Shown piece after piece: positions 40,516-62,236 of a stretch of 64,000 bases of DNA (its first letter is position 1; the number at the start of each line of letters is the position of its first letter). Below the pieces are notes generated by a model. That model saw nothing but the letters and a program-made list of their open reading frames with translations, was not told where the DNA came from and did not search any database. The DNA is from Candidatus Latescibacterota bacterium (GTDB taxonomy: Bacteria; Latescibacterota; UBA2968; UBA8231). The stretch covers positions 32,001 to 96,000 of the forward strand of contig CBDCDC010000002.1 in NCBI GenBank assembly GCA_965215195.1, written 5' to 3'. The position numbers and the translations under genes were made by a program.

Positions 40516-41334
40516 CTAGATGTAACCGAACAGAAAATACGGCGTCCCGATGCAGTAAACGAGCTCTACATGGCGCCACATAGCCTTGTCTGGATCCCAA
40601 GCCATGCGGAAGAAGAACGGGATGTGCGCCATTTCGAGGGCGGCGAACTCCTCGGGCTCTTCGACGATGAACATGACCTCGACAAAGGTCTGCGGTTTGC
40701 CCGCTTGGAGGTGCTCTTGGACCTCGCTCTTCATTTTGGAAAATCTGCCCGATACTTCCGTGGGTGGAAGCAGGCCGCGCTCCCTGAGGGACTCGGAATA
40801 AGGGCTGTACTCGGCCTGCCTCTCGGACACCTCAAACGCGCTGTCGAAAAAGGATACCTTTCCGAAGTAGTAATCGTATTCATTCTTGTCGAGGAGTTGC
40901 CGGTGTCCCGCTTTGAGGATGTCAAAAGGCGTCTCGCCTTTTAAGAGGCCCTCGCTTGCAAGCCGGTTTTTCAACTCCTCTATCGCTTCGGGGTTATTGA
41001 CGCCCTCGCGGAGGTAAAACGCGGCGGCGAGGCTGTCGCTACTCGAAACCGAAAAGGCGACTAAGAGATCGTAGAGGTAGGTGCGCAGATCGGCTTCTTG
41101 CTCGGGAGTGATGGGAGTGTCCCCCTCGACGGGGATGGCCGCGATGGCCTGCTGCAGCTCGTCCCCGGCCTCGACGTTTATCATCTCCAAGCTGTTGACA
41201 TAGTCGTGAAAGGCTTGGAGAGAGACTTGCCAGTTCTCGTCCCAGGAGTAGCCGCCGTACTGGGCTTTTGGCTCGGCAGCGGCACTGGAGGCGGCGAACC
41301 AAGCGGCGATTAGGGCGAAATACAAAGTTTTCAT
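40516..41334 (-). CDS. Unrecognised secreted ~280-aa family, paralog H1
   Basis: Signal peptide; QYGG, DSLAAAFYLREGVNNP, MFIVEEPEE, WDP..MWR.VE. Confidence 0.85.
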   Translation of the reverse strand: MKTLYFALIAAWFAASSAAAEPKAQYGGYSWDENWQVSLQAFHDYVNSLEMINVEAGDELQQAIAAIPVEGDTPITPEQEADLRTYLYDLLVAFSVSSSDSLAAAFYLREGVNNPEAIEELKNRLASEGLLKGETPFDILKAGHRQLLDKNEYDYYFGKVSFFDSAFEVSERQAEYSPYSESLRERGLLPPTEVSGRFSKMKSEVQEHLQAGKPQTFVEVMFIVEEPEEFAALEMAHIPFFFRMAWDPDKAMWRHVELVYCIGTPYFLFGYI

Positions 41335-41454
41335 CTAGATACCTCTTCTGGGTTTGGGTTGGGTTGCCCCGGAATAGCGGCGATTAAGCCACTATCCCGG
41401 GGCGAGTTAGGGTGGAGGGGCGAGTGGCCTAGAGTAGCCGCTCCGGAAGGGTGG

Positions 41455-41634
41455 TTAGGAGCTGCATACCGGATTCCCGTATGCGTCGCAATAGCACTTG
41501 ACCGCACTACCGATTACGATGCACCAACCGTTATCGCAGTCGGCCCCGCACATATCAGCCTCGGCCTTCTGCGGCAGGAAGCTGACGATCAAGCCCGTGA
41601 GGCTAATGGCCAGCCGGATGATGCGCTTTTTCAT
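41455..41634 (-). CDS. Small secreted 6-Cys peptide P1 (59 aa; below the ORF-track cutoff)
   Basis: MKKRIIRLAISLTGLIVSFLPQKAEA-DMCGADCDNGWCIVIGSAVKCYCDAYGNPVCSS; AAAGGAG RBS. Confidence 0.85.
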   Translation of the reverse strand: MKKRIIRLAISLTGLIVSFLPQKAEADMCGADCDNGWCIVIGSAVKCYCDAYGNPVCSS

Positions 41635-41793
41635 GATAATCTCCTTTGATCTGGTGTGCTGCGTTGTCTCGGAGGCGATCTCCGAGGTGAAGCACTGGCC
41701 GCTAGAGGCCAGTTTAGACGACGTGTTTCATAAGCGTTCCCTCCTTTCTGTTGCTGTTGAAGAGTGTGGGTTGTTGCTTCAGTAAGACTTATC

Positions 41794-41809
41794 GCAATTT
41801 TCGTGCCAA
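41794..41809 (-). promoter_or_regulatory. sigma54 -24/-12 promoter, unit 1
   Basis: TTGGCACGAAAATTGC matches the TGGCACG-N4-TTGC consensus. Confidence 0.88.
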
Positions 41810-41952
41810 TGCGTGATCAGTGGTCGTCAAGTGCGCTGAGTTCTATGATTGTATGAATCCTAAATGACTGTTAAATAATGTCTTATGAAAAATAAAGAAA
41901 TTTTTATCGCCTGTGTCTCAGGCCCTTGCAAAGTCCTTTTGACGGCCTAAAA

Positions 41953-42014
41953 GTGCGACAATACATCGCACAAATGCGTCGAATTATCGCGTTTAGTGCG
42001 TCTAAACATCGCAC
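41953..42014. promoter_or_regulatory. Triple palindromic upstream activator sequence, unit 1
   Basis: GTGCG-N9-CGCAC x3 with 21-22 bp period. Confidence 0.75.
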
Positions 42015-42314
42015 GGACGCGCCTAGCCAGCCGCCATTGCTGGGCACAGGCTCTGCTGATTGATGTCGCGCAGTCGGGCGAATCGGCGAATCGACGAGTC
42101 TGGCCCTGCGGATCAACGGGATTCCAACGAGTTGGTTTTTCGAGTCCCCACAGGGCACCCACCCCATCCCCGGTAGGGGCTGCTCTTGGGGCGGCCCTCG
42201 CAGTGCTAAGGGACAGAGTAGATGAGGATTGGGGCGGCTGGCCGGCGTGGCCGGACGCGAAAGGGGCAGCCCATAGATCGGACTGCCCCCTCTACTTCCT
42301 TATGGGATTTCAGG

Positions 42315-43886
42315 TTACTTGGCGTCGTAGCGGGCAAAGAGCCGGTTGGCGAGGACAAACAGCCCGACTGCATACAGCAACAGAGAGGTTAGCTCCGGCC
42401 AGGCGTGGCGCAGACTCTGGGCGACGGTCCAGCCGCGTTCCTTAAACCGCGGCAGGTCGCGCAGGTCGGCGCGCCAGCCGGAATCATCGTTGAACCACTC
42501 ACGGGAGCCGAAGGCATCGCGCTCTTCGAGGAAGGTGACGATTTGCCCGCGATAGGTGCGTACTTGGGCAATGAAGTCGTCGTATTCGCGTCGGCTGGTG
42601 CCGGCGCAGGCACTGGCGGCTTGGGCATACGCACCGGCGGGCAGGAGGCGCTGGAGATAGGCATTCCAGCGTTGGATGCGGCGGGGGAAGTTTTCGAGCA
42701 GGGGGGCTTTGGCGTTCCAAGCGGTCTGGGCGTACTTCAGGCGCAGGCGCTCGCCGGTGCGGATGATGTCTTGGAACTTCGTAAGCGCGGGCGAATCGAC
42801 GACATTGGATAGATAGAAACCGGCAATATGCTCTTTCAGTTCAGAGTATGGGCCACCCATAATGTTCAATACCGTTCCGCGTCTTCCCTGTGGAGGGAGC
42901 TGCTCGACCATGCGGACGGGCGGATACTTGGTCTGGCCGTGCGTCCGAGCGAGGTCAGTAGCCTCTTGATCGAACTTCTTCCACACTTGCGCGGCTTGGT
43001 GATGGGCTCGCTCGTGCTTTTCGCCCATGTTGGCCTGCTCGTTGAGCAAGGCCGTGATGCTGTCGGGCAGCACAATCGCCAGCAACGCCCACGTGAACAG
43101 CGCGTAAATCAAGCTGGTCGCCGAGCGATGGGTCGCGCACGAGATGGCCAGCCCAATCAGGTAGAACACCAGCAGATACAGCAGCGACAGCGCCAACAGC
43201 AGCCCCAACCGCACCCATTCGCCGAGCCCGACTTCGATATATTCGGTGCCCAACAGCAAGATCGTCAGCAGGATAAAGCCCAAGGCCGTTGGAATGGCCA
43301 GTGTGGTCAGGCCGGCGAGGACTTTGCCGGCGAGGACTTGGGCGCGGCTGACGTTGGTGGTCAGCATCAGCCGCAGGGTGCCGTCCTCCTTCTCGCCGGA
43401 GATGGTCTCGCTGGCGATGAGGATGGCCAACAGGCCGAGCACGAGTTGGAAGATGTACACGATGTCGAAGGAGGCAAAGATGGCGAGGTAGGGATTACCC
43501 GACTGGAAGGGGGCAATCGCCTCGGTTTGGTAGGGCACCTCGAAGAGCAAGACTTTGACGGCTTGCCCCACCTCTTGTTCGACGCCTTGGGCGAACACTT
43601 GTAGGGGGCGCGGGGGCCGTAGCGCACGCGGGGCCGCCTTAGCTACTAAATCCCCCGTGACCGAAGCGTTGTAGTCCGTGCCTAGGGCCGAATATAGGGT
43701 GATTTCGTGCAGTTTGGTTTCCTCAACGGCGCGTTGCGTGAGGTAACTGGCCTTTTTCTGGACATAAGCCTGGCTGGTGAGCAGCCCGTTGGCGATGATG
43801 AGCACCACCGCGAGGGCGGTGCAAGCGGCGAAGCGCTGGCTGAGCAGATGGCTGAGCATCTCTTTTTTGAACACAATGCCGATCAT
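42315..43886 (-). CDS. ABC-2-like permease type A, copy 1
   Basis: VFKKEMLSH, GEKEDGTLRLML, LAGKVLAG. Confidence 0.85.
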   Translation of the reverse strand: MIGIVFKKEMLSHLLSQRFAACTALAVVLIIANGLLTSQAYVQKKASYLTQRAVEETKLHEITLYSALGTDYNASVTGDLVAKAAPRALRPPRPLQVFAQGVEQEVGQAVKVLLFEVPYQTEAIAPFQSGNPYLAIFASFDIVYIFQLVLGLLAILIASETISGEKEDGTLRLMLTTNVSRAQVLAGKVLAGLTTLAIPTALGFILLTILLLGTEYIEVGLGEWVRLGLLLALSLLYLLVFYLIGLAISCATHRSATSLIYALFTWALLAIVLPDSITALLNEQANMGEKHERAHHQAAQVWKKFDQEATDLARTHGQTKYPPVRMVEQLPPQGRRGTVLNIMGGPYSELKEHIAGFYLSNVVDSPALTKFQDIIRTGERLRLKYAQTAWNAKAPLLENFPRRIQRWNAYLQRLLPAGAYAQAASACAGTSRREYDDFIAQVRTYRGQIVTFLEERDAFGSREWFNDDSGWRADLRDLPRFKERGWTVAQSLRHAWPELTSLLLYAVGLFVLANRLFARYDAK

Positions 43887-43916
43887 GGGGTGGCTCCTAT
43901 GAGTGGAAGGCGAACG

Positions 43917-44136: not shown

Positions 44137-44319
44137 TTAGGAGCTGCATACCGCACTCCCGTTTGCGTCGCACTTGCACTCAACTATCCAACCGATTGCG
44201 GAGCACGATGAACCGTTAGGGCAAGTGATGCTGCACCAAACAGCCTCGGCCTTCTGCGGCAGGAAGCTGACGATCAAGCCCGTGAGGCTAATGGCCAGCC
44301 GGATGATGCGCTTTTTCAT
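44137..44319 (-). CDS. Small secreted 6-Cys peptide P2
   Basis: Same leader as P1; core VWCSITCPNGSSCSAIGWIVECKCDANGSAVCSS. Confidence 0.85.
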   Translation of the reverse strand: MKKRIIRLAISLTGLIVSFLPQKAEAVWCSITCPNGSSCSAIGWIVECKCDANGSAVCSS

Positions 44320-44478
44320 GATAATCTCCTTTGATCTGGTTTGTTGCGTTGTCTCGGAGGCGATCTCCGAGGTGAAGCACTGGCCGCTAGAGGCCAGTTT
44401 AGACGACGTGTTGCATAAGCGTTCCCTCCTTTCTGTTGCTGTTGAAGAGTGTGGGTTGTTGCTTCAGTAAGACCTATC

Positions 44479-44494
44479 GCAATTTTCGTGCCAA
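44479..44494 (-). promoter_or_regulatory. sigma54 promoter, unit 2 (UAS at 44638-44699)
   Basis: TTGGCACGAAAATTGC. Confidence 0.88.
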
Positions 44495-44841
44495 GTCGTG
44501 GACAATGGTCGTCAATCGCGCTGAGTTCTATGATTGTATGAATCCTAAATGACTGTTAAATAATGTCTTATGAAAAATAAAGAAATCTTTATCGCCTGTA
44601 TCTCAGGCCCTTGCGAAGTCCTTTTGACGGCCTAAAAGTGCGACAATACATCGCACAAATGCGTCGAATTATCGCGGTTAGTGCGTCTAAACATCGCACG
44701 GACGCGCTTGGCTTTGACGGTAGGCGGTGGATGGTGCGGGACGGGTAGATGGGGATTGGGGCGGCTGGCCGGCGTGGCCGGACGCGAAAGGGGCAGCCCA
44801 TAGATCGGACTGCCCCCTCTACTTCCTTCTGAGATTTCGGG

Positions 44842-46416
44842 TTACTTGGCGTCGTAGCGGGCAAAGAGCCGGTTGGCGAGGACAAACAGCCCGACTGCAT
44901 ACAGCAACAGAGAGGTTAGCTCCGGCCAGGCGTGGCGCAGACTCTGGGCGACGGTCCAGCCGCGTTCCTTAAACCTCGGCAGGTCGCGCAGGTCGGCGCG
45001 CCAGCCGGAATCATCGTTGAACCACTCGCGGGAGCCGAAGGCATCGCGCTCTTCGAGGAAGGTGACGATTTGCCCGCGATAGGTGCGGACTTGGGCCATG
45101 AAGTCGTCGTATTCGCGTCGGCTGGTGCCGGCGCAGGCACTGGCGGCTTGGGCATACGCACCGGCGGGCAGGAGGCGCTGGAGATAGGCATTCCAGCGCT
45201 GGATGCGGCGGGGGAAGTTTTCGAGCAGGGGGGCTTTGGCGTTCCAGGCGGACTGGGCGTACTTCAGGCGCAGGCGCTCGCCGGTGCGGATGATGTCTTG
45301 GAACTCGGCGAGTGCGGGCGAATCGACGACATTGGATAGATAGAAACCGGCAATATGCTCTTTCAGTTCAGAGTATGGGCCACCCGTAATGTTAAATAGC
45401 GTTCCGCGTCCCGGCTGTGGAGGGAGCTGCTCGACCATGCGGACGGGAGGATACTTGGTCTGGCCGTGCGTCCGAGCAAGGTCGGTGACCTCCTGATCGA
45501 ACTCCTTCCACACTTGCGCGGCTTGGTGATGGGCTTGGGCATGCTTTTCACCCATGTTGGCCTGCTCGTTGAGCAAGGCCGTGATGCTGTCGGGCAGCAC
45601 AATCGCCAGCAACGCCCACGTGAACAGCGCGTAAATCAAGCTGGTCGCCGAGCGATGGGTCGCGCACGAGATGGCCAGCCCAATCAGGTAGAACACCAGC
45701 AGATACAGTAGCGACAGCGCCAACAGCAGCCCCAACCGCACCCACTCGCCGATTCCGACTTCGATGTACTCGGTGCCCAACAGCAAGATCGTCAGCAGGA
45801 TAAAGCCCAAGGCCGTTGGAATGGCCAGTGTGGTCAGGCCGGCGAGGACTTTGCCGGCGAGGACTTGGGCGCGGCTGACGTTGGTCGTTAGCATCAGCCG
45901 CAGGGTGCCGTCCTCCTTCTCGCCGGAGACGGTCTCGCTGGCGATGAGGATGGCCAGCAGGCCGAGCACGAGTTGGAAGATGTACACGATGTCGAAGGAG
46001 GCAAAGATGGCGAGGTAGGGATTACCCGACTGGAAGGGGGCAATCGCCTCGGTTTGGTAGGGCACCTCGAAGAGCAAGACTTTGACGGCTTGCCCCACCT
46101 CTTGTTCGACGCCTTGGGCGAACACTTGTAGGGGGCGCGGGGGCCGTAGCGCACGCGGGGCCGCCTTATCTACGAATGAATCCCCCGAGACCGACTCGCT
46201 GTGGTCCGTGCCTAGAGCCGAATAATGGGTGATTTCGTGCAGTTTGGTCTCCTCAACAGCGCGTTGCGTGAGGTAGCTGGCCTTTTTCTGGACATAGGCT
46301 TGGCTGGTGAGCAGACCGTTGGCGATGATGAGCACCACCGCGAGGGCGGTGCAAGCGGCGAAGCGCTGGCTGAGCAGATGGCTGAGCATCTCTTTTTTGA
46401 ACACAATGCCGATCAT
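44842..46416 (-). CDS. ABC-2-like permease type A, copy 2
   Basis: Close paralog of 42315-43886. Confidence 0.85.
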   Translation of the reverse strand: MIGIVFKKEMLSHLLSQRFAACTALAVVLIIANGLLTSQAYVQKKASYLTQRAVEETKLHEITHYSALGTDHSESVSGDSFVDKAAPRALRPPRPLQVFAQGVEQEVGQAVKVLLFEVPYQTEAIAPFQSGNPYLAIFASFDIVYIFQLVLGLLAILIASETVSGEKEDGTLRLMLTTNVSRAQVLAGKVLAGLTTLAIPTALGFILLTILLLGTEYIEVGIGEWVRLGLLLALSLLYLLVFYLIGLAISCATHRSATSLIYALFTWALLAIVLPDSITALLNEQANMGEKHAQAHHQAAQVWKEFDQEVTDLARTHGQTKYPPVRMVEQLPPQPGRGTLFNITGGPYSELKEHIAGFYLSNVVDSPALAEFQDIIRTGERLRLKYAQSAWNAKAPLLENFPRRIQRWNAYLQRLLPAGAYAQAASACAGTSRREYDDFMAQVRTYRGQIVTFLEERDAFGSREWFNDDSGWRADLRDLPRFKERGWTVAQSLRHAWPELTSLLLYAVGLFVLANRLFARYDAK

Positions 46417-46447: not shown

Positions 46448-47452
46448 TCAAGCGGCCATGGCCTTAAGGACCGCTTGGCTCTGCATCTCCATACCGAGCT
46501 GCTTAAACAGACGCAACGCCGCCACCCATTCTGCCAACGCCCGTTGCTTGTTGCCATCCTGTCGTGCGTACAGATTGCCCAAGGATACGTAGTTGAAAGC
46601 CTGCATCCGCGCGTTCCCTAGCTGTCGGCACAAGTCCATAGAAGCCTGTATATGCCGTTGCGCCATCGCGAGGTCGCCGGCTGTCATGTAGAGGTCGGCC
46701 AGCAGCGTCGCCATGCCACAGCGGCCTTGGGCATGCCCCTGCGCCACGTAGATGCTCAAGGCTTCGTTGCCGTTGCTCAAGGCGCGGTCTATGTGGCCTA
46801 AGTTGCGGCAGACCGAAGCAATGGAGCCGAGTTGCAGGGCTACTTCAAGGGGCGTCCCTTGCTGCCGGGCGGCCGTGAGGCCGGCCGTGAAGTGGTGCAG
46901 GGCTTGCGCTGAGTCGCCGCGGCGCAGGGCCAGTTGCCCCAAGCTGTTGAGCAGGTTGCCCGGCACGTCGTCGTCGTAGAGGGCGCGGCTGCGCTGGAGC
47001 CACTGTTGGGCTTCCGCCAAATCGTTCTGCTGCATGTAGAGGTTGCCCATGTTGTTGGCCATCTTGGCGGCGAGGGCGGCATCGCCGCCTTGTTGGGCGT
47101 GCTGTATGGCCTTGCGGTAGTACGCGGTGGCTTCGGCAAAGCGGGATTGGCTTTGTTTGATGAAGCCGACGTTGCCTTCGGCCTCGGCTACATCGCATAG
47201 GGAGCGGCTCGGCGAGCAAGCGGCCAATGCCTCTTGGAAGTATTGTAGCGATCCGTCGAGGTCGCCGGCGATCTCGCAGTGGTGGCCGAGCTGGGTGCAA
47301 ACCTCAAACAGCCCCTTTTGGCATCCCTCGGCGCGAAAGAGCCGGCGCGCTGTTTGGTAGTGGGTGGCCGCTTGCTCGTGTTGCCCCTTTTTGCGGCAGG
47401 TATAGCCTAATTGGAGATGCGTCCACGCCTTGGTTGTCTTTGGCGAACTCAT
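46448..47452 (-). CDS. Tetratricopeptide repeat protein
   Basis: Repeated LG..Y...G....A..Y...A helices. Confidence 0.85.
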   Translation of the reverse strand: MSSPKTTKAWTHLQLGYTCRKKGQHEQAATHYQTARRLFRAEGCQKGLFEVCTQLGHHCEIAGDLDGSLQYFQEALAACSPSRSLCDVAEAEGNVGFIKQSQSRFAEATAYYRKAIQHAQQGGDAALAAKMANNMGNLYMQQNDLAEAQQWLQRSRALYDDDVPGNLLNSLGQLALRRGDSAQALHHFTAGLTAARQQGTPLEVALQLGSIASVCRNLGHIDRALSNGNEALSIYVAQGHAQGRCGMATLLADLYMTAGDLAMAQRHIQASMDLCRQLGNARMQAFNYVSLGNLYARQDGNKQRALAEWVAALRLFKQLGMEMQSQAVLKAMAA

Positions 47453-47462
47453 GGTAGCCTCC

Positions 47463-48410
47463 TTATCGCGTCAGGGCCAGCACGGGTATGCGCACCTGCT
47501 CTGCGCCGATTTGCACCTCTACGCCACAGTGCAGCGTGCCAGTGGGGAAATCGCTCGTGTTGCGGATCTGGACGACTAAGCTGTTGTCGGCTTCTCGCTG
47601 GTATGCGATGTCCAGTTGCACCTCGCCGCACACGGGCGACGCCTGTACGGGTGCGTCGATCAATTTCGCTGGCAAGCCCACGCGTACTTGGCGCGTCTCG
47701 CGCCGCTGCGCTGCACCCACGCCGAAGGACGCGCTCTGCGGCGCTAGGCTAAAGCGAGGGCTGACCCGTCCGCGCACTTGGATGGAACGGGGAGACGCTT
47801 CGCCCTCGGCAGCAATCGTCGCTTCAATGGTGGCGACGATGCGATCGCCCCACGTCAGGCCCGCGGCCGGGGTGAGCTCTAGGGCGGTGCCATCGTCCAC
47901 TACCGACGCCTCTATGCCTTTTCCCGCGACCTGCACTTGGCGAATGTGTCGCGGCTGCCCGTTGATCTGCGCGAGGGGAATGCGGCGGATGATGGAGGAT
48001 AGATCGTCGCCTTGGATCGTCCCTAGGTGCAGTTTGCTGGGCAGCATGGGCACGACCTGTCCCTCCAACTGCAACTGCCATTTATCGGCTTGGCCGGCCA
48101 CGCTAAAGTCAATGCTGGGGGTAAAAGTCCCGGCGCGCCCCGAAGTGTCGATCTGGTAGGCAATCGAGTACGTCTCGCCGGCCTTCAACGGCCCTTGGGG
48201 GAACTCGACGCCGGTGCAGCCGCAGCCGGGTTCGGCCGCGACGATTTCCATGTCGTAGGGCGCGACAAAGCGCACCTCGCCGGTCGTGCCCTCGCTGTCG
48301 TAGGTCGTGCCGTACTCAGCGGTCTGCGGCAGTTCGTCGGCATGGGCCCAGCCCGTGTAAAATACGGCGACTAGGGCCGCTACTTTTAGCGTTAGGTTGT
48401 TCATGATCAT
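47463..48410 (-). CDS. DUF1573-like Ig-fold secreted protein
   Basis: Signal peptide; EPGCGCT..PLKAGE..IDTSGRAG. Confidence 0.75.
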   Translation of the reverse strand: MIMNNLTLKVAALVAVFYTGWAHADELPQTAEYGTTYDSEGTTGEVRFVAPYDMEIVAAEPGCGCTGVEFPQGPLKAGETYSIAYQIDTSGRAGTFTPSIDFSVAGQADKWQLQLEGQVVPMLPSKLHLGTIQGDDLSSIIRRIPLAQINGQPRHIRQVQVAGKGIEASVVDDGTALELTPAAGLTWGDRIVATIEATIAAEGEASPRSIQVRGRVSPRFSLAPQSASFGVGAAQRRETRQVRVGLPAKLIDAPVQASPVCGEVQLDIAYQREADNSLVVQIRNTSDFPTGTLHCGVEVQIGAEQVRIPVLALTR

Positions 48411-49889: not shown

Positions 49890-49919
49890 GGGGAAGCCTC
49901 CTTCTTTGGAGTCAGCGGA

Positions 49920-50735: not shown

Positions 50736-50860
50736 CGGTACACCTCTTCTGGGTTTGGGTTGGGTTGCCCCGGAATAGCGGCGATTAAGCCACTATCCCG
50801 GGGCGGGTTAGGGTTGGAGGAGAGGGCGAGTGGCCTAGAGTAGCCGCTCCTGAAGGGTGA

Positions 50861-51043
50861 TTAGGAGCTGCATACCGCACTCCCGTTTGCGTCGCACTTG
50901 CACTCAACTATCCAACCGATTGCGGAGCACGATGAACCGTTAGGGCAAGTGATGCTGCACCAAACAGCCTCGGCCTTCTGCGGCAGGAAGCTGACGATCA
51001 AGCCCGTGAGGCTAATGGCCAGCCGGATGATGCGCTTTTTCAT
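50861..51043 (-). CDS. Small secreted 6-Cys peptide P3 (protein identical to P2)
   Basis: Translation identical to 44137-44319. Confidence 0.85.
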   Translation of the reverse strand: MKKRIIRLAISLTGLIVSFLPQKAEAVWCSITCPNGSSCSAIGWIVECKCDANGSAVCSS

Positions 51044-51202
51044 GATAATCTCCTTTGATCTGGTTTGTTGCGTTGTCTCGGAGGCGATCTCCGAGGCGAA
51101 GCACTGGCCGCTAGAGGCCAGTTTAGACGACGTGTTGCATAAGCGTTATCTCCTTTCTGTTGCTGTTGAAGAGTGTGGGTTGTTGCTTCAGTAAGACTTA
51201 TC

Positions 51203-51218
51203 GCAATTTTCGTGCCAA
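51203..51218 (-). promoter_or_regulatory. sigma54 promoter, unit 3 (UAS at 51362-51423)
   Basis: TTGGCACGAAAATTGC. Confidence 0.88.
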
Positions 51219-54143: not shown

Positions 54144-54989
54144 TTACATGTAGTCAATCAGAAAAAAATGCGACAGTCGAGAGTTATAAAAAGCCTCTAC
54201 AAAGCGCCACGTAGCCCGCTCTGGGTCCCAAGCCAGCCGGAAAAAGAGGGGGGTGCGTATCTGTGCTGCAAACCACCCGGCGGACTCTTCGGGCTCTTCG
54301 GTAATGAACATGATGTCGGTAAAGACCCACTGCTCGCCCGCCTGTAGAGCGGCCTCAATATCTTCCCTCAATTTGGGCTCGTTCCCATACACTGGCCCGG
54401 CAACCACCATGCCGTGGGCCCGGGCGTAGGCCAGATAACTCTCGTAAGTGCCCTGCATCTCGAACACCTTGAATACACTATGGAGAAAGGACACATTTCC
54501 AAAGCGGTATTCATAGTCTTTGTTGTCGAGTGTGGCTCTGTGCTTGGCTTGGAAGAGGGCCAAGGGCGTATCGCCTTTTAGGAGTCCCCGACGCTCTAGA
54601 TCTTTTTTTATTTTTTCTAGGGCATCGGGGTTATTGACGCCTTCGCGCAAGTAAAACTGGGCGGCGAGGCTGTCGCTGCCGGAGACGGAAAAGGCGACGA
54701 GAAAGTCGTAGAGCCAGGTGCGCAGGTCAGCTTCTTGCTCGGAGGTGATGGGGACGCCCGGCTCAACGGGGATGGTTGCTACGGCCTGCTGTAGCTCGGG
54801 GCCCGCCTTGACCTTCATCATCTCCAAGCTGTGGAGATAGTCGATATTGACTTGGAGGCTGTCAGGGTGCGGCGAGAAGCCGCCGTACTGGCGTTTGAGC
54901 TCGGCAGCAACGCTGGAGACGCCGAGATAGATGGCGACCAAAGCAAGATATAGGGTGCGAATGGCCAGCCGGATGATGCGCATCTTCAT
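54144..54989 (-). CDS. Unrecognised secreted family, paralog H4, with a peptide-leader-like N-terminus
   Basis: Starts MKMRIIRLAI, then family motifs. Confidence 0.85.
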   Translation of the reverse strand: MKMRIIRLAIRTLYLALVAIYLGVSSVAAELKRQYGGFSPHPDSLQVNIDYLHSLEMMKVKAGPELQQAVATIPVEPGVPITSEQEADLRTWLYDFLVAFSVSGSDSLAAQFYLREGVNNPDALEKIKKDLERRGLLKGDTPLALFQAKHRATLDNKDYEYRFGNVSFLHSVFKVFEMQGTYESYLAYARAHGMVVAGPVYGNEPKLREDIEAALQAGEQWVFTDIMFITEEPEESAGWFAAQIRTPLFFRLAWDPERATWRFVEAFYNSRLSHFFLIDYM

Positions 54990-55147
54990 AACGAACTCCG
55001 TTACGTAGGTTTGCTGCGTTGTCTCGGAGGCGATCTCCGAGGTGAAGCACTGGCTACTAAGGCTGCAAGCCCAAGCCAGTTGAGACGATGTGCTTCATAA
55101 GCGTTCCCTCCTTTCTGTTGTGGGTTGCTGCTTCTGTAGGCATTATT

Positions 55148-55163
55148 GCAATTATCGTGCCAA
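55148..55163 (-). promoter_or_regulatory. sigma54 promoter, unit 4 (UAS at 55307-55368)
   Basis: TTGGCACGATAATTGC. Confidence 0.88.
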
Positions 55164-55502
55164 TGAATGGCCAGCGGGCGATAATCGCGCCGATTCCTTT
55201 GATTTTATACATCCTAACTGACTGTTATACAATACTTTATAAAAAATGAGCTAATTTCCTTGCTCGTCTCTCAGGCTCTTTGCGATGCTTGCTTGACGCC
55301 CTAAAAGTGCGCGGATATATCGCACAAGTGCGTCTAATCATCGCGTTTAGTGCGTCTAATCATCGCACCGGGGGACTATTGATTGCGGCGTAGGCCCTGT
55401 TCAGTGGAACGGTGCCGCCGCCTGCTGAGGCCGTGTCGGACGGCGTTGGTGGAAGGGGAGAGAGGTTGGTGCGGGGGTGGCGGTCTATGGGGAAGGCGTT
55501 TG

Positions 55503-55576: not shown

Positions 55577-57028
55577 TTAGACAATACTGGTCCGCAGCCA
55601 TGCTCGGTAGGCGAGCATGTAGGTGAGCGTGGCGAAGAAGAAGAGACCGATGACATCGACAACCGCGTGCCGCAGCAAGGTCGTCGCCGACAGGTTCTCG
55701 GTGAAAATCGGCAGGGTGTCGGGATCGATTTTCTGCCGCGACAGCCCTTGGGCGACGAGGGGGATGTGCATGCTTTTGGGATCGTCGCGGTCGCGGGTGA
55801 GCATGGTCTGCTCAAACTGCTGGACGTAAGTACGCGCCTGCTCAACAAAGCTTTTGTGGCGCGCCAGTCCGGTGCCGGCGAGCGCCTCCATGCCGTACTG
55901 AAAGCAGCCTGCTGGCGACAGGCGCACGATGTGGCGGGCGTTTTCGACCTCGCCGAGGCTGTGAGCCAAAAAGCGGTTTTCGCGGTCTTGGTGAAACTGG
56001 CGCACGGCGCGTTGGGCGTCGGCCAACTGGCGCACTTTTTCGGGGTTTCTCAGATCGCGATTCCGCAATTTACGTTTAAGGTCAAGAAGTTTATCGTGGG
56101 CTGGCGTATTATTGTTTGCGAAGCCCCATCCCAGTACCAACTCCTCCTCGAATTCGCTGATCAACACACGGGCGGCCAATGCACCGCCGGTGGCCGGCCA
56201 GAGCAACGCCCCACAAGTCCACAGCAACAGCACGCCCACCAAGCTGGAGCGCGTACTGCTGCTCCGTATCGACACCCATAGCCCCAAGCCGACAAAGCAG
56301 GCCAGATACAGCAGCGACAGGCCGACCATGCCGACCAAGCGCCCGGCCTCGACCAGACCCAAGTTCACCTTTGAGAGCGCGAGGATGATGAGCAAGTTGA
56401 CGACGATGGCGAGGCTGAGCACGAGGGCGAGGACGAGCAATGCGCCGAGGAACTTGCCCAGCAGCAGGGTGTGGCGCGGCAGGCTCTGCGCCATGACCAG
56501 CTTGAGGGTGCCGCGCTCTTTTTCGCCGATGAAGGCGTCAAAGGTGAACAACAAGGCCATGAGGCTGAGCAGGCCGCCGATGATAAAGACCCAGTCGATG
56601 GCTTGGGTCTCCAGCAGTTGGCTGGCCTTGGGGGCCCAGATGTCGATGATGTCCCAATAGATGAGTACAAAGGGATCGTAGAATCTGACGCTGTTGTAGG
56701 TGTTTTCCCCGCCCTGTGTCCAGAGACGCTCGGGCAGGGCGTCGTCGGCACCCGTGGCGCAGAACATGAGGGTACTGGGTTTTTTGTAGATGTACTCCTG
56801 CCCTGCATGGAGAATCAGCTTCCACAGGCCCCGCTGGGCGTTGCTGCGGCCGATTTCTTGCTCGGCTTGGACTTGCTGGAGATAGTGGTCGCGTCGGAAC
56901 TCGTAGGAGCCGCCGACAAAGCCGAGGGCGTTGAGCACCATTAGCCCCACTGTCAGCACGAGAGCCAAGCCAAAGCGCAGGCTGATGAGGTGGTCGATCA
57001 GTTCGCGTTTTACGATAGCTGCTAGCAT
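55577..57028 (-). CDS. ABC-2-like permease type B, copy 3
   Basis: Start set at MLAAIVKRE by paralog comparison and AAGGAG RBS. Confidence 0.85.
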   Translation of the reverse strand: MLAAIVKRELIDHLISLRFGLALVLTVGLMVLNALGFVGGSYEFRRDHYLQQVQAEQEIGRSNAQRGLWKLILHAGQEYIYKKPSTLMFCATGADDALPERLWTQGGENTYNSVRFYDPFVLIYWDIIDIWAPKASQLLETQAIDWVFIIGGLLSLMALLFTFDAFIGEKERGTLKLVMAQSLPRHTLLLGKFLGALLVLALVLSLAIVVNLLIILALSKVNLGLVEAGRLVGMVGLSLLYLACFVGLGLWVSIRSSSTRSSLVGVLLLWTCGALLWPATGGALAARVLISEFEEELVLGWGFANNNTPAHDKLLDLKRKLRNRDLRNPEKVRQLADAQRAVRQFHQDRENRFLAHSLGEVENARHIVRLSPAGCFQYGMEALAGTGLARHKSFVEQARTYVQQFEQTMLTRDRDDPKSMHIPLVAQGLSRQKIDPDTLPIFTENLSATTLLRHAVVDVIGLFFFATLTYMLAYRAWLRTSIV

Positions 57029-57054: not shown

Positions 57055-58629
57055 TCACATGGCGTCGTAGCGGGCGAAGAGCCGGTTGGCGAGGACAAAT
57101 AACACGGCCGCATAGAGCAACAGGACCATTAGAGCCGGCCAAGCGTGGCTCAAGCTCTCAGCGACGGTCCAGCCGCGCTCGTGAAACCTCGGCAGGTCGC
57201 GCAGGTCGGCTCGCCAGCCGGGATCGTCGTTGAACCACTCGCGGGCGCCAAACGCATCGCGGTCTTCGAGAAAGGTGATGATCTGCCCTCGGTAGGCGCG
57301 TACTTGGTCGATAAAGTCGTCGTATTCGCGTCGGCTGGTGCCGGCGAGGATGCTAGCGGCTTGGGCGTAAGCACCGGCCGGCAGGAGGCGTTGGAGTTGG
57401 GCGTTGAGGCGTTGGATGCGGCGGGGGAAGCCTTCAAGCAGGGGAGCCTTCTCGTTCCAAGCGCGCTGGGCGTATTTCAAGCGCAGCCGCTCGCCAACAC
57501 GGACGATGTCTTGGAACTTCGCCAGTGCGGGTGAATCGGCGACATTCGATACATAGAGTTGGGGCGTTTGCCCGTCTCTTGTAGAGTAGCATTTAGTTCC
57601 CTTATAGTAGGTTAGAGTCCCGCGTCCTTCCTGCGGCGGGAGCTGCTTGACCATATCTGTGGGAAAGTACTGGGTCTGGCCGTGCGCCCGTGCGAGGTCG
57701 AGAACCTCCTGATCGAACTCTTTCCACACTTGCGCGGCTTGGTGATGGGCTTGCTCGTGCTTTTCGCCCATGTTGGCCTGCTCGTTGAGTAAGGCTGAGA
57801 TGCTGTTGGGCAACACAATCGCCAGCAGTGCCCACGTAAACAGGGCGTAAATCAAGCTGGTCGCCGAGCGGTGCGTCGCGCACGAGATCACCAGCCCAAT
57901 CAGGTAGAATACCAGCAGATACAGCAGCGACAGCGCCAACAGCAAGCCCACCCGCACCCACTCGCCGATCCCGACTTCGATGTTCTCGGTGCCCAACAGC
58001 AAGATCGTCAGCAGGATGAAGCCCAAGGCCGTTGGAATGGCCAGCGTGGTCAGGCCGGCGAGGACTTTGCCGGCGAGGACTTGGGCGCGGCTGACGTTGG
58101 TGGTCAGCATCAGCCGCAGGGTGCCGTCCTCCTTCTCGCCGGAGATGGTCTCGCTGGCGATGAGGATGGCCAGCAAGCCGAGCACGAGTTGGAAGATGTA
58201 CACCATATCGAAGAAGGCAAAGAGGGCGAGGTAGGGATTGCTCGATTGGAAAGGCGAGACCTCCTCGGCTTGGTAGGGCACGTTGAAGAGCATCACCTTG
58301 ACGGCCTGCCCTGCCTGTCGTTCGGCACCTTGAGCGAACACTTGTAGGGGGCGCGGGGGCCGTAGCGCACGCGGGGCCGCCTTGGGCTTGGGACTACCGT
58401 TAGGCGACACCAACCAGTCCCAGCCTAGAACCGAATAATAGGTGATTTCGTGCAGTTTGCTGTCCTCAACAGCCCGCTGTATGAGGTAGCTGGCCTTTTT
58501 GTGGACATAGGTCTGAGTAGAGAGCACGCCGTTGGCGATAATGAGCACCACGGCGAGGGCGGTGCAAGCGGCGAAGCGCTGGCTGAGCAGGTGGCTGAGC
58601 ATCTCTTTTTTGAACACAATGCCGATCAT
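57055..58629 (-). CDS. ABC-2-like permease type A, copy 4
   Basis: Most diverged type A paralog. Confidence 0.85.
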   Translation of the reverse strand: MIGIVFKKEMLSHLLSQRFAACTALAVVLIIANGVLSTQTYVHKKASYLIQRAVEDSKLHEITYYSVLGWDWLVSPNGSPKPKAAPRALRPPRPLQVFAQGAERQAGQAVKVMLFNVPYQAEEVSPFQSSNPYLALFAFFDMVYIFQLVLGLLAILIASETISGEKEDGTLRLMLTTNVSRAQVLAGKVLAGLTTLAIPTALGFILLTILLLGTENIEVGIGEWVRVGLLLALSLLYLLVFYLIGLVISCATHRSATSLIYALFTWALLAIVLPNSISALLNEQANMGEKHEQAHHQAAQVWKEFDQEVLDLARAHGQTQYFPTDMVKQLPPQEGRGTLTYYKGTKCYSTRDGQTPQLYVSNVADSPALAKFQDIVRVGERLRLKYAQRAWNEKAPLLEGFPRRIQRLNAQLQRLLPAGAYAQAASILAGTSRREYDDFIDQVRAYRGQIITFLEDRDAFGAREWFNDDPGWRADLRDLPRFHERGWTVAESLSHAWPALMVLLLYAAVLFVLANRLFARYDAM

Positions 58630-58660
58630 GGTGCATCTCCTTAGGAAAGGGACTTAGTGG

Positions 58661-59325
58661 TCAAGCGGCCATAGCCTTAATGACCGCTTGGCTCTGCATC
58701 TCCATACCGAGCTGCTTAAACAGACGCAACGCCGCCACCCATTCTGCCAACGCCCGTTGCTTGTTGCCATCCTGTTTCGCGTACAGATTGCCCAAGGATA
58801 CGTAGTTGAAAGCCTGCATCCGCGCGTTCCCTAGCTGTCGGCACAAGTCCATAGAAGCCTGTATATGCCGTTGTGCCATCGCGAGGTCGCCCGCTGTCAT
58901 GTAGAGGTCGGCCAGCAGCGTCGCCATGCCACAGCGGCCTTGGGCATGCCCCTGCGCCACGTAGATGCTCAAGGCTTCGTTGCCGTTGCTCAAGGCGCGG
59001 TCTATGTGGCCTAAGTTGCGGCAGACCGAAGCAATGGAGCCGAGTTGCAGGGCTACTTCAAGGGGCGTCCCTTGCTGCCGGGCGGCGGCGAGGCCGGCCG
59101 TGAAGTGGTGCAGGGCTTGCGCTGAGTCGCCGCGGCGCAGGGCCAGTTGCCCCAAGCTGTTGAGCAGGTTGCCCGGCACGTCGTCGTCGTAGAGGGCGCG
59201 GCTGCGCTGGAGCCACTGTTGGGCTTCCGCCAAATCGTTCTGCTGCATGTAGAGGTTGCCCATGTTGTTGGCCATCTTGGCGGCGAGGGCGGCATCGCCG
59301 CCTTGTTGGGCATTAGCTTGTTCAT
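58661..59325 (-). pseudogene. Deletion fusion of the DUF1573 gene start to the 3' part of the TPR gene
   Basis: 59311-59348 resembles 48391-48429; the rest is nearly identical to 46448-47098. Confidence 0.8.
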
Positions 59326-59357
59326 GATCTTTCTCCTGCGTTAGTGGTAAGGGTGGA

Positions 59358-60191
59358 TTACATGACGTTAAAGAGAAAGTTCTGCGGTACGCCGCGGATG
59401 AAATAGACTTCTACATGGCGCCACATAGCCTTGTCTGGGTCCCAAGCCAGCCGAAAGAAGAACGCGCTGCGCCCCGGCCCCTCAAACCCGGCGAACTCCT
59501 CGGGCTCTTCAATGATGAACATGACCTCGGCAAAGACCCACTGCTCGCCCGCCTGCAGGCGCTCCTCAACCTCGCTCTTCATTTTAGGGATGGAACTCGA
59601 TATGTTCGTATTAGGCAACATGCGGCGGAGCATAAGGGATATGACATAAGAACTGTATTCCGCCTGCATCTTGGACACCTTGAACGCGCTGTCGAAAAAG
59701 GACACCTTTTCCAAGTAGTAGTCGCGCTCATTCCTGTTGAGCATTTCTCTGTGCCCAGCTTGGAAGATAGCCAAAGGCGTATCGCCTTTTAGGAGGCCCT
59801 TACTCTCAAGCCTCTTTTTTAGTTCCTCTACTCCGTCGGGGTTATTGACGCCCTCGCGGAGGTAAAAGGCGGCGGCGAGGCTGTCGCTGCCCGAGGCCGA
59901 AAAGGCCACGAGGAAATCGTAGAGCCAGTCGCGCAGGTCGGCTTCTTGCTGAGGGGTGATGGAAATGTCCGGCTCGACGGGGATAGCTTCAACGGCACTC
60001 TGCAACTCGGGGCCGGCCTCGACCGGGATCATATCCAAACTGTGGATGTAGTCGAGATAGGCTTGGTAGCCATCGGCGTCGGACGAAAAGCCACCGTACT
60101 GGGGCTGGGGATCGGCCGCAGTAGTGCTGGAGATGCCGAAATAGACGGCGAGTAGGGCGAAACGCAGGGCGGGAATGGTCAGCTTTTTCAT
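59358..60191 (-). CDS. Unrecognised secreted family, paralog H5
   Basis: Family motifs. Confidence 0.85.
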   Translation of the reverse strand: MKKLTIPALRFALLAVYFGISSTTAADPQPQYGGFSSDADGYQAYLDYIHSLDMIPVEAGPELQSAVEAIPVEPDISITPQQEADLRDWLYDFLVAFSASGSDSLAAAFYLREGVNNPDGVEELKKRLESKGLLKGDTPLAIFQAGHREMLNRNERDYYLEKVSFFDSAFKVSKMQAEYSSYVISLMLRRMLPNTNISSSIPKMKSEVEERLQAGEQWVFAEVMFIIEEPEEFAGFEGPGRSAFFFRLAWDPDKAMWRHVEVYFIRGVPQNFLFNVM

Positions 60192-60233
60192 GGTATTTCC
60201 TCCAGTTAAGTAGTGGTTTGTGGCAGGACTGGT

Positions 60234-61064
60234 TTACGTGGCGCCGAACGAGAACGCAACCGGCGCGTTATTAGACGTGAAAATTTCTACCAAACGCCAC
60301 ATACTCCGCTCGGGATCCCAGACCTGTCGCACGAAAAACGGGGCGCGTATTGCCCCCTCGAAGTCAGCAAACTCTTCGGGCTCTTCGACGATGAACAGGA
60401 CATCGGCAAAGACCCGCTGCTCGTCCGCTTGCAGGGCTGCCGCGACCTCGCGCATCAGCTTGGGGGGCCACCCCATCAAGCCCCAGGGAAGCAGGCCGTG
60501 GGACTTGGCGTATTCCATATAGCTTTCATACCCCCCTTGCTTCTCGAACACGCGGTACACACTGTCGAAAAAGGATGCGTTTCCGAGGAAATAATCGCGC
60601 CCCTTAAAGTCGAGATTTTCTCTGTATGCGGCTTTGAATACGGCCAAGGGCGTATCGCCTTTTAGGAGGCCCTTACTCTCAAGCCTCTTTTTCAGTTCCT
60701 CTACTCCGTCGGGGTTATTGACGCCCTCGCGGAGGTAAAAGGCGGCGGCGAGGCTGTCGCTGCCCGAGGCCGAAAAGGCGACGAGGAAATCGTAGAGCCA
60801 GGCGCGCAGGTTGGCTTCTTGCTGGGGGGTGATGGAAATGTTCGCCTCGACGGGGATAGCTTCAACGGTGCTCTGCAACTCGGGGCCGGCCTCGACCGGG
60901 ATCATATCCAAACTGTGGATGTAGTCGAGATAGGCTTGGTGGCCGTCGGCATCGGGCGAAAAGCCGCCGTACTGGGGCTGGGGATCGGCCGCGGCTGCGT
61001 TGGAGAGGGCGAACCAGATGGTCAGCAGGGCGAAAGACAGGGTGCTAATGGCTAAGGGTTTCAT
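60234..61064 (-). CDS. Unrecognised secreted family, paralog H6
   Basis: Start at MKPLAI after AAGGAG. Confidence 0.85.
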   Translation of the reverse strand: MKPLAISTLSFALLTIWFALSNAAAADPQPQYGGFSPDADGHQAYLDYIHSLDMIPVEAGPELQSTVEAIPVEANISITPQQEANLRAWLYDFLVAFSASGSDSLAAAFYLREGVNNPDGVEELKKRLESKGLLKGDTPLAVFKAAYRENLDFKGRDYFLGNASFFDSVYRVFEKQGGYESYMEYAKSHGLLPWGLMGWPPKLMREVAAALQADEQRVFADVLFIVEEPEEFADFEGAIRAPFFVRQVWDPERSMWRLVEIFTSNNAPVAFSFGAT

Positions 61065-61217
61065 GGTATTCTCCTTGTTCTTGGGTTTGTCGTTGTTTCG
61101 GCGGCGAGTGGTCGGCTGAACCACTCGCCGCCGATCGGGTTGCTCCGGGGTAGCGGCGATTAGGCCACTATCCCGGAGCGCGAAATGCCCATTCGTGCAT
61201 TAGGCGTCAATGCAAAA

Positions 61218-61272
61218 AAAGCCGAGGGCGTTGAGCACCATCAGCCCCACTGTCAGCACGAGGGCTAAGCTA
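61218..61272 (-). pseudogene. Small remnant of the permease type B 5' region
   Basis: AAAGCCGAGGGCGTTGAGCACCAT-AGCCCCACTGTCAGCACGAG matches ~56918-56965. Confidence 0.7.
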
Positions 61273-61321
61273 ATCTCCTTGCTTTTCAGGTTGATAGCTT
61301 ATATCGGAAGTGGTCTGCGAC

Positions 61322-62236
61322 CTACAAGAATGAAAACCGAACCGGCGCGTTATTCGGCATGACGATTTCTACGAGACGCCACATAGCCTTCTCCGGGCTC
61401 CAGACGAGTCGTACGAAAAACGGGTAGCGCATTGGCCCCTTTTCAAAATCGGCGACCTCTTCCGGCTCTTCGAAGATGAACATGAGTTGGGCCGCCACCC
61501 ACTTTTCGCCGGCCTGTAGAGCTTCCTCTAGCTCGTTTCCCATGGGAGACAAACTCATATAGCCCATGGGGAGCAGGCCATGGGTCTTGATGTAAGCCCA
61601 ATAGTGCTCATACTCTCCTTGCAGCTCGAATACGCGATACGCGCTGTCGAAAAAGGAGATGTTGCCGAAGAAGTAATCGCATCCCTTCGCGTCGAGGTTT
61701 TTTCTGTGCTGGGTTTTTAAGATGGCAAGGGGCGTATCGCCCGCATCGGGGACCGGCTCGGGAATGGGGATACTCATCGCGAGCCCCGCCGCCTTTATCT
61801 GTTCCTGCAACTTTTTTATTTCGGCGATTTCTGCGGCACTAGGACCGCTTTCCAATCGCTCTTTTATCTGCTGTATCTCGTCTGGGTCATCGACGCCTTC
61901 GCGCAAGTAAAAAGTAGCGGCGAGGCTATCGCTGCCGGAAGCGGAAAAGGCGACGAGAAAGTCGTAGAGCCAGTCGCGCAAGTCGGCTTCTTGCTGGGGG
62001 GTGATGGAAATGTCCGCCTTGACGGGGATAGCCTCGACGGCCTGCTGCAATTCGTCGCCGGCCTTGACCAGGACCATGTCCAAACTGTGGATGTAGTCGA
62101 GATAGGCTTGGTGGCCGTCGGCATCAGGCGAAAAGCCGCCGTACTGAGGCTGGGGATCGGCCGCGGTCGTGCTGGCGACAGCCAGCCAAGCGGCGACTAG
62201 GGCAAAAGACAGGGTGTTAATGGCTAAAGGTTTCAT
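61322..62236 (-). CDS. Unrecognised secreted family, paralog H7
   Basis: Start at MKPLAI after AAGGAG; larger central insertion. Confidence 0.85.
   Translation of the reverse strand: MKPLAINTLSFALVAAWLAVASTTAADPQPQYGGFSPDADGHQAYLDYIHSLDMVLVKAGDELQQAVEAIPVKADISITPQQEADLRDWLYDFLVAFSASGSDSLAATFYLREGVDDPDEIQQIKERLESGPSAAEIAEIKKLQEQIKAAGLAMSIPIPEPVPDAGDTPLAILKTQHRKNLDAKGCDYFFGNISFFDSAYRVFELQGEYEHYWAYIKTHGLLPMGYMSLSPMGNELEEALQAGEKWVAAQLMFIFEEPEEVADFEKGPMRYPFFVRLVWSPEKAMWRLVEIVMPNNAPVRFSFL

Follow-up and report, generated by a model that had tools for sequence, protein, structure and literature searches.

Secreted paralogs encoded beside six-cysteine peptides and ABC-2 permeases in Latescibacterota: a candidate family of periplasmic peptide binders

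We analysed a stretch of 64,000 nucleotides (nt) from a Candidatus Latescibacterota genome (positions 32001-96000 of contig CBDCDC010000002.1, hereafter C2; this whole stretch is called the window). Seven genes for an unnamed secreted protein, H1-H7, are found there, and they are interleaved with genes for small six-cysteine peptides (P1-P3), with permeases of the ATP-binding cassette type 2 (ABC-2), permA and permB, and with other members of a conserved cassette. The explanation that we favour, at a probability of roughly one half, is that H proteins are periplasmic binders of these peptides, which hold a peptide for the protection of its producer until a pump exports it. The initial annotation had linked the family to the peptides by position, and this link is now supported by the order of genes in relatives (an H gene behind 24 of 27 peptide genes), by a predicted H1-P1 complex that passed its controls and by the placement of the variable segments of H on the modelled contact surface.

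Results

Seven paralogs of a secreted protein

All seven H genes are encoded on the minus strand within positions 40516-62236 and yield 271-304 amino acids (aa) from their likely starts (Table 1). The proteins can be aligned end to end, with 52-63% identity to H1 and 67 invariant columns, and have in common the motifs QYGGFS, DYIHSL, WLYDFLVAFSxSGSDSLAAAFYLREGVNNP, SFFDS, MFIxEEPEE and WxPxxxMWRxVE. Similarity among seven copies over 270 residues is far beyond what would be expected by chance. Each N-terminus, as read from the translations, is a hydrophobic Sec-type signal peptide without a lipobox cysteine. The insertions that mark H3 and H7 were placed after H1 residues 127 and 131. The core motifs are kept across all H clades, together with the invariant polar residues S95, D100, S101, R109, S165, R243 and E257, all of which lie outside the modelled peptide interface. 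The initial annotation had proposed seven paralogs of a secreted protein, with insertions in H3 and H7, and the open reading frames (ORFs), the alignment, the quoted motifs, the signal peptides and the insertions were all recovered.

Six-cysteine peptides precede H genes

The mature parts of P1-P3 are 33-34 residues long, contain six cysteines and follow a signal peptide ending in FLPQKAEA. The gap between the end of P1 and H1 is 121 nt, that between the end of P3 and H2 is 126 nt, and no peptide gene is found in front of H3-H7, as had been annotated initially. The order is recurrent: among 27 non-redundant peptide genes at the loci of relatives, an H gene follows within 400 nt in 24, permA follows in two, and one lies at a contig end. 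A permease gene is present within 6 kb of 24 of these 27 genes, and distinct peptide frameworks pair with distinct H clades.

In these peptides, the signal peptide is near-invariant and the six cysteines are invariant, and the other positions change freely. For 14 class-1 peptide genes, the ratio of non-synonymous to synonymous substitution rates (dN/dS) was 0.28 in the signal peptide, 0.93 in the mature part and 1.11 in the mature part without its cysteine columns. A database search recovered 126 peptide clusters. Among the 120 clusters listed, 110 have a FLPQKAEA-like site and more than ten cysteine spacings occur; exactly six cysteines were counted in 102 of the 110 peptides with this cleavage motif, and all 110 mature parts are distinct. 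A search for unrecognised peptide genes before the lone H genes of relatives revealed only noise ORFs and one decayed remnant (locus L049).

Two other readings of the peptides were rejected. A glycocin, or another peptide that is made by the ribosome and modified after translation (RiPP), modified by the cassette's GT2 or by a GT1-transglutaminase fusion, was dropped because the leader is a typical Sec signal peptide and because synteny alone ties these enzymes to the peptide. A radical-SAM six-cysteine peptide was set aside given what is known of that family; no search for radical-SAM genes was made.

A predicted H1-P1 complex passes its controls

We modelled mature H1 (residues 21-272) with mature P1 (residues 27-59), using a separate alignment for each partner. 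Scores of 0.71, 0.82 and 0.64 (median 0.71) were obtained in three runs, while the best of three controls scored 0.00; the pLDDT (predicted local distance difference test) of the partners did not fall below 81, and 90% or more of the contacts were common to the runs. The mark used for this score is reached by 116 of 157 solved complexes and by two of 215 mismatched pairs, counts that hold only roughly here because our own alignments were used. The predicted contacts comprise H1 residues 31, 35, 117, 120-121, 124-125, 128, 143, 146-147, 191-198, 263-265, 268 and 270-271, and the tightest are those of H1 residues 193-197 with peptide residues 36-41. The model thus supports binding of P1 by H1.

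The modelled contact surface is the variable part of H

A sliding dN/dS scan of 13 H1 orthologs (Nei-Gojobori, pooled pairs), run before the complex model had given its result, peaked at residues 31-39 (2.04) and 175-198 (1.19), with core values of 0.12-0.3. In the H1 clade, the 25 contact residues had a mean entropy of 1.25, compared to 0.45 for the rest of the protein (Mann-Whitney p 8e-7) and 0.46 for non-contact loops (p 5e-6), and only one of 252 circular shifts reached the observed contact entropy. Similarly, dN/dS in this clade was 1.06 at contact residues and 0.34 elsewhere. The seven window paralogs are 25% identical at contact positions and 61% identical elsewhere (one of 252 shifts gave a value as low), and the H3 and H7 insertions flank the modelled contact residue 128. 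The mean pairwise distance was 0.49 for contact residues and likewise 0.49 for mature peptides, and the rest of H and the signal peptides each gave 0.19.

The same positions behaved differently in other clades. For contact positions and the rest, respectively, dN/dS was 0.18 and 0.23 in lone-H clade A, 0.26 and 0.23 in lone-H clade B, 0.30 and 0.20 in the Hb clade (that of H2), 0.95 and 0.24 in the H7 clade, and 0.72 and 0.29 in the H11 clade. The contact positions are therefore not intrinsically loose, as they evolve slowly in the two lone-H clades and fast in the H7 and H11 cassette clades. The initial annotation had pointed to sharp differences after HG(L/M)LP and at the C-terminus and to the insertions in H3 and H7, and these segments fall on the modelled contact surface; the variable residues are clustered rather than scattered.

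Models of H resemble the NTF2-like fold

AlphaFold2, run on a 26-row alignment, predicted whole H1 with a pLDDT of 86.4 and a predicted template modelling score of 0.84, and residues 72-272 alone with a pLDDT of 88.1. In these models, N-terminal helices pack into a strongly curved antiparallel sheet, the alpha+beta cone typical of NTF2-like proteins. An exhaustive structural aligner returned for both models lists composed almost wholly of NTF2-like proteins that cover most of the target domains, including SnoaL-like proteins, dioxygenase beta subunits, the CaMKII hub, VirB8-like domains and NTF2 itself. NTF2 is named outright in twelve of the titles listed for the whole protein, and we take the remaining proteins to belong to the same superfamily. 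The best Z-scores were 5.9 for whole H1 and 6.8 for residues 72-272; Z was 5 or more for 34 chains and 8 or more for none. The top match was the C-terminal NTF2-like domain of Csd6 (4xzz_A 205-330; Z 6.8, root-mean-square deviation 3.9 Å, 112 residues aligned). Overall, the best matches were non-catalytic NTF2-like domains, such as the C-terminal domain of Csd6/Pgp2, and proteins without an assigned function.

The Foldseek comparison that the initial annotation had suggested found nothing in the PDB at E <= 0.001 for either H1 model (best E 0.11 and 0.038). At the sequence level, H1-H7 matched no Pfam family at E <= 0.01, NTF2-clan families included, and no family in NCBIfam or PADLOC; the best E of a profile search against PDB sequences was 0.16, and the named NTF2-like families SnoaL, DUF4440, Imm-NTF2 and MlaC gave no significant profile match. 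No enzyme family was matched either. Z-scores of 5.9-6.8 can reflect a mere common arrangement, and we hold the resemblance with moderate confidence. Since NTF2-like proteins dominate the fold lists but Z is low and neither Foldseek nor Pfam provides a match, we consider this a resemblance of fold and not membership of a family; the NTF2/SnoaL-like pocket of the initial annotation stands in the first sense and falls in the second. On the strength of this modest but consistent resemblance, H would have a cone of the NTF2-like kind, into which about 45 residues of helical structure are inserted and to which a further helical part is added at the N-terminus. With the NTF2-like superfamily (SnoaL-like proteins, the Csd6/Pgp2 C-terminal domain, VirB8-like domains and the CaMKII hub) the models have in common the cone of helices on a curved sheet, whereas the lack of any sequence or profile match, the helical insertion, the N-terminal part and the signal peptide set H apart.

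A lineage-restricted family with old paralog clades

With a profile of the H family, we detected 16 H copies and one fragment in this genome, cited below by coordinates on contigs C1 and C2. All 16 adjoin permA or permB genes. A word-indexed search recovered 484 H-related proteins at E <= 0.001 among 7999 candidates scored. An exhaustive profile search of 1.84 billion representatives yielded 58 at E <= 0.001, of which many are fragmentary, and revealed no remote relatives of a different type. The source names looked up for ten H clusters were all "hypothetical protein". In a protein atlas, the best matches were unnamed clusters at 0.86-0.87, and the nearest named clusters, DUF3828, DUF4864 and DUF4019 at 0.78-0.80, serve as leads only.

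Contigs from one genome per species encoded an H relative in 112 of 120 candidate stretches, of which 55 loci were kept. By the titles of the metagenome-assembled genomes (MAGs), 51 of these are Latescibacterota or Latescibacteria and four are Gemmatimonadota or Gemmatimonadetes. In the literature, the Latescibacterota lineage is known mainly from marine sponges; literature searches covering NTF2-like bacteriocin immunity proteins, DUF3526 and Latescibacterota bacteriocins and MAGs gave no description of the H family.

In a FastTree tree of 123 H proteins (support values SH-like only, after Shimodaira-Hasegawa, with no bootstrap), the window paralogs split into separate clades, each with orthologs in other MAGs. 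The H1 clade (14 rows, support 100) has a peptide gene directly upstream in 12 of 14 cases, and the H2 clade (nine rows) is positioned just before permB. Each of H3-H7 belongs to an old paralog clade with orthologs at the matching position in other MAGs. The paralogs are therefore old and conserved rather than strain-specific orphans, and the orphan immunity or receptor arrays of the initial annotation were not established. That reading is weakened further by the many lone H genes found in unrelated contexts with a conserved surface, and by the lack of covariation between H and its partner peptide (see Discussion).

A clade of 30 rows consists of lone H genes, which reside either among thioredoxin-like redoxins with an extracytoplasmic function (ECF) sigma factor or behind an operon in which a GntR regulator is encoded together with an ABC ATPase and a small ABC-2 permease. 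At loci L042, L043, L050 and L061-L072, they stand amid expanded secreted thioredoxin-like (Redoxin/AhpC-TSA) proteins of about 370 aa, ECF sigma factors and sulfatases; a link of H proteins to periplasmic thiol-disulfide chemistry is possible. A second, divergent cluster at C1:779588-800793 (L013-L016, L073 and L074) contains four H copies, about 33% identical to H1 and with a longer insertion. Each of these is followed by permA and permB, an anti-sigma-like zf-HC2 protein is encoded in front, and an IS4/5-family transposase interrupts the cluster. Finally, a database protein of 1909 aa (P0190) showed seven weak stretches of similarity to the N-terminal H profile (positions 18-83, E 1.3e-5); in Pfam it matches only a hexapeptide-repeat family, and the H match may be due to chance or low complexity.

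The cassette combines H genes with permeases and, at one locus, a complete candidate pump

The whole region is encoded on the minus strand. The permeases, about 523 aa (permA, four copies) and 479 aa (permB, three copies), match ABC2_membrane_2/3 and DUF3526. Relatives repeatedly show the order GT2, permA, peptide, H1-like gene (at 75-85% identity), another H gene (at about 49%), permB, DUF1573 and TPR. Identity between copies reaches 95.6% for permA and 96.7% for permB, and part of the array is therefore a recent segmental duplication. The duplicated segments are 38788-43886 versus 48450-53137, and 44137-46416, with P2 and P3 identical as proteins. One duplicate retains the Ha-type H1 and the other the Hb-type H2, while relatives have both in tandem.

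Elsewhere in the genome, a cluster on contig C1 repeats H-permA-permB three times and closes with DUF1573, an 839-aa fusion of a GT1-type glycosyltransferase to a transglutaminase-like core, and GT2. The GT1-transglutaminase gene beyond the high end of the window (L075:1880-3158) is split into ORFs of 244 and 218 aa and thus appears decayed. A complete unit, C2:481019-489417, comprises a sigma-54-type promoter, H10, permA, permB, a secreted protein of 503 aa for which NPCBM_assoc was the sole match, a TolC-family protein and an ABC ATPase; relatives show this gene order too. The TolC-family outer-membrane proteins at the H10 locus and in L032, both outside the window, match PF02321 (OEP) at E 2e-36 and 4e-39, as found for the outer-membrane factor of a tripartite ABC efflux system of the MacAB-TolC type. 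H genes also adjoin a 240-aa ABC ATPase in L018, L032, L033, L037 and L048, and a GntR-ABC ATPase-261-aa ABC-2 permease set in L046, L051 and L060.

Sigma-54-type promoters precede the units

We take TGGCAC-N5-TTGC to be the sigma-54 -24/-12 consensus. Five such elements are present in the window, all on the minus strand and 154-174 nt before the starts of P1, P2, P3, H4 and H7, where 0.26 were expected and none of 100 shuffles reached five. Genome-wide, eight of the 44 pattern matches precede H, peptide or permA units. In relatives, an element was found before 23 of 29 peptide genes and before 24 of 46 H genes with no recognised upstream neighbour. An NtrC-type sigma-54 activator with a dCache histidine kinase is encoded just past the window, adjoining two more H genes. 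The five elements mark the transcription units of the array. Two apparent coding stretches, the short ORF 55057-55212 and the part by which the longest H7 ORF is extended at its N-terminus (to 62440), are translated promoter region and not genes.

Two further loci were noted in the window. An operon at 20907-22761 (minus strand; GntR regulator, ABC ATPase, small ABC-2 permease) and a PhyH-family gene (19990-20910, plus strand) are convergent; no H gene lies behind this operon, while an H gene follows its counterpart in L046, L051 and L060. At 32589-34385 (minus strand), a 598-aa secreted protein has an N-terminal TPR part and an internal duplication with sugar-binding domains of the glycosyl hydrolase family 2 N-terminal type.

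Table 1. Features of the H array, in window coordinates.
Feature	Position	Strand	Remarks
OmpR-type response regulator	36047-36814	-	With the histidine kinase, directly after permB
Histidine kinase	36720-38684	-	Directly after permB
permB	38788-40227	-	479-aa ABC-2 permease (PF12679), after H1
H1	40516-41334	-	272 aa, Sec signal peptide; Ha clade; directly after P1
P1	41455-41634	-	59-aa precursor: 26-residue signal peptide ending FLPQKAEA, 33-residue mature part, six Cys
Sigma-54-type -24/-12 element TGGCAC-N5-TTGC	41794-41808	-	174 nt before P1 start
permA	42315-43886	-	523-aa ABC-2 permease (PF12679 + DUF3526)
P2	44137-44319	-	60-aa precursor, protein identical to P3; then permA, no H gene
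Sigma-54-type element	44479-44493	-	Before P2
permA copy	44842-46416	-	95.6% identical
TPR protein	46448-47452	-	Conserved cassette member
DUF1573 protein	47463-48410	-	Secreted, conserved cassette member
permB copy	48450-49889	-	96.7% identical to first permB; after H2
H2	49920-50735	-	271 aa; Hb clade, the second H gene, just before permB, in relatives
P3	50861-51043	-	60-aa precursor; then H2
Sigma-54-type element	51203-51217	-	Before P3
permA copy	51566-53137	-	90% identical
H3	53215-54084	-	289 aa; insertions after H1 residues 127 and 131
H4	54144-54989	-	281 aa; first gene behind sigma-54-type promoter
Sigma-54-type element	55148-55162	-	Before H4
permB copy	55577-57028	-	81% identical; start at MLAAIVK methionine inside longer ORF
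permA copy	57055-58629	-	82% identical
Truncated TPR gene copy	58661-59275		204 versus 334 aa
H5	59358-60191	-	277 aa
H6	60234-61064	-	276 aa from MKPLAIS start; longest ORF to 61124
H7	61322-62236	-	304 aa from MKPLAIN start; longest ORF to 62440; longest insertion; first gene behind sigma-54-type promoter
Sigma-54-type element	62376-62390	-	Before H7
GT2 glycosyltransferase	62828-63883	-	Conserved first cassette gene in relatives

Discussion

A proposed periplasmic peptide binder that would work with a pump

In the mechanism that we propose, H and its peptide would both reach the periplasm through Sec. There, an NTF2-like cone with a helical insertion would grip the peptide in its folded form at an edge strand that lies exposed (H1 residues 191-198), with the helical insertion (117-128 and 143-147), the N-terminal stretch after QYGGYS (31-35) and the C-terminal tail (263-271) as further parts of the clamp. 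It is in this contact surface that the paralogs differ, so peptide preference would be individual to each of them, and a task shared by all copies would fall to the strongly conserved core. H and its peptide would act together with the two sigma-54-controlled ABC-2 permeases, which at the complete locus are followed by a putative coiled-coil protein of the periplasm, a TolC-like channel in the outer membrane and an ABC ATPase. By retaining the peptide in the producer's periplasm, H would shield the producer until the pump expels the peptide. Paralogy, secretion signals, synteny, promoter motifs and the pattern of variability were observed directly, and fold and binding were modelled; the direction of transport, the protective role and the action of the peptides are what we infer, and the data would fit protection and a pure hand-over for export alike.

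Several observations weigh against a peptide-binding role. In this genome, 14 of the 16 H genes have no adjoining peptide gene, and the same holds for a lone-H clade of 30 rows in relatives. No ABC ATPase is encoded in or near the H units of the window. With a mean net charge of -2.4, the mature peptides are anionic, which sets them apart from typical membrane-active antimicrobial peptides. Binding is a modelled result, and the predictor may favour strand-to-strand docking on exposed edges. The predicted fold matches only modestly (Z 5.9-6.8), with nothing from Foldseek. Contact-residue and peptide distances did not covary in a Mantel test of 12 H-peptide pairs (r 0.07, p 0.30; partial r 0.008, p 0.48), which had low power but lent no support. 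A dN/dS near 1 fits diversifying selection and relaxed constraint alike. Finally, the modelled interface leaves the invariant polar residues of H without an explanation.

Alternative explanations

Alternatively, H could be a general periplasmic accessory of ABC-2 exporters, an adaptor or shuttle for a non-peptide cargo such as a glycolipid or glycan. Such a cargo, made by the cassette's GT1-transglutaminase and GT2, would be held in the cone in the manner of periplasmic lipid carriers, and the peptide genes would be mere passengers of the regulon. H genes adjoin three kinds of ABC components, most of them have no peptide gene, the core motifs with their invariant polar residues are conserved in all clades, and the glycosyltransferases are conserved in the cassette. 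However, this explanation does not account for the peptide-then-H order in 24 of 27 cases, for the overlap of the fast-evolving surface with the modelled peptide contacts or for a complex model that passes its controls, and we consider it rather improbable.

A periplasmic NTF2-like enzyme (an isomerase, hydrolase, dehydratase or cyclase by type), with the peptide or a small molecule as its substrate, seems to us quite unlikely. The invariant Ser, Asp, Arg and Glu residues, which lie outside the modelled interface, would then be catalytic, and enzymes are numerous among the NTF2-like proteins of the fold lists (SnoaL-like, ketosteroid-isomerase-like, LinA and bile-acid dehydratase). Nevertheless, no enzyme family was matched by sequence in Pfam, NCBIfam or the PDB, the closest structures are non-catalytic domains or proteins without an assigned function, and sixteen paralogs per genome with a hypervariable surface would be unusual for an enzyme.

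Equally unlikely, in our view, is H as a periplasmic receptor of a peptide pheromone, relaying to adjoining two-component systems that activate the sigma-54 promoters: the histidine kinase and response regulator behind permB, the NtrC-type activator with a dCache kinase beside two H genes and the sigma-54-type promoters on all units would fit, but it is rare for a pheromone system to require as many as 16 paralogous receptors and over 100 variants of the peptide, nothing points to contact between H and a kinase, and the pump genes would go unexplained.

Comparison with known systems

If H is indeed a peptide binder, the nearest known systems that would work similarly each have some of its features, and none appears to combine H's fold, permease type and pairing. 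In lantibiotic clusters, producers protect themselves by the LanI binding protein, the LanFEG ABC-2 transporter and the LanRK two-component system. Both settings appear to feature a secreted ribosomal peptide beside an extracytoplasmic proposed binder, two ABC-2-type permease genes and a two-component system. Of a LanFEG-type set, the window encodes two ABC-2 permease types, with an ATPase at the H10 locus and none near the window units; permA matched the MutG lantibiotic-immunity permease model weakly, at E 0.0019 and far below its cut-off. In contrast to LanI, H has no lipobox, an unrelated NTF2-like fold as predicted and no sequence match; it thus has neither the lipobox cysteine nor the family match of a LanI/LanH-type lipoprotein or membrane immunity protein. 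Unlike lantibiotics, the peptides described here are made with a Sec signal peptide and contain six cysteines, and their surroundings encode no lanthionine enzymes. The organism, moreover, is a diderm, and the pump continues into a TolC-like channel.

Heat-stable enterotoxin II of E. coli is a disulfide-rich peptide that is exported in two steps, through Sec and then through MacAB-TolC. A small cysteine-rich Sec peptide, an ABC transporter and a TolC-family protein in one gene set would be common to that system and ours, whereas the permeases here are of the ABC-2 type (PF12679/DUF3526) rather than MacB/FtsX, and no HlyD-type adaptor was recognised. The enterotoxin II system is not known to include a periplasmic binding partner like H.

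The pattern of peptide evolution has its closest parallels in animals. Conotoxins combine a conserved pre-region with a hypervariable mature part. The mussel family MgCRP-I (PMC4558851) has a conserved pre-region and a hypervariable six-cysteine mature part. A conserved signal region and invariant cysteines with rapid change between them are common to these families and the peptides described here; unlike the animal genes, however, the latter are bacterial, have their own cysteine spacings and are each paired with a binder gene and a pump.

Implications

Taken further, and only tentatively, these genes could represent an undescribed Sec-dependent peptide weapon or signal system of diderms, in which conotoxin-like diversifying peptides are matched gene by gene with equally fast-evolving NTF2-like binders, driven by sigma-54 and expelled through ABC-2/TolC pumps; H proteins without a peptide would then protect against the peptides of neighbouring strains. 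If peptide binding by H holds true, an unnamed, lineage-restricted family would gain a testable function, namely peptide binding by an NTF2-like cone. It would also provide a bacterial case of a conserved signal peptide with a hypervariable cysteine framework, so far seen mainly in animal toxins and defence peptides. The peptide, the binder, the ABC-2 pair, the TolC-like channel, the ATPase and the sigma-54 control would define a compact gene set that could be rebuilt in a laboratory host, and the natural peptide variants, which number more than 100 and each have a binder that is a candidate cognate partner, would be a ready set for specificity studies. For an uncultured phylum, the system would offer one of few handles on competition or communication.

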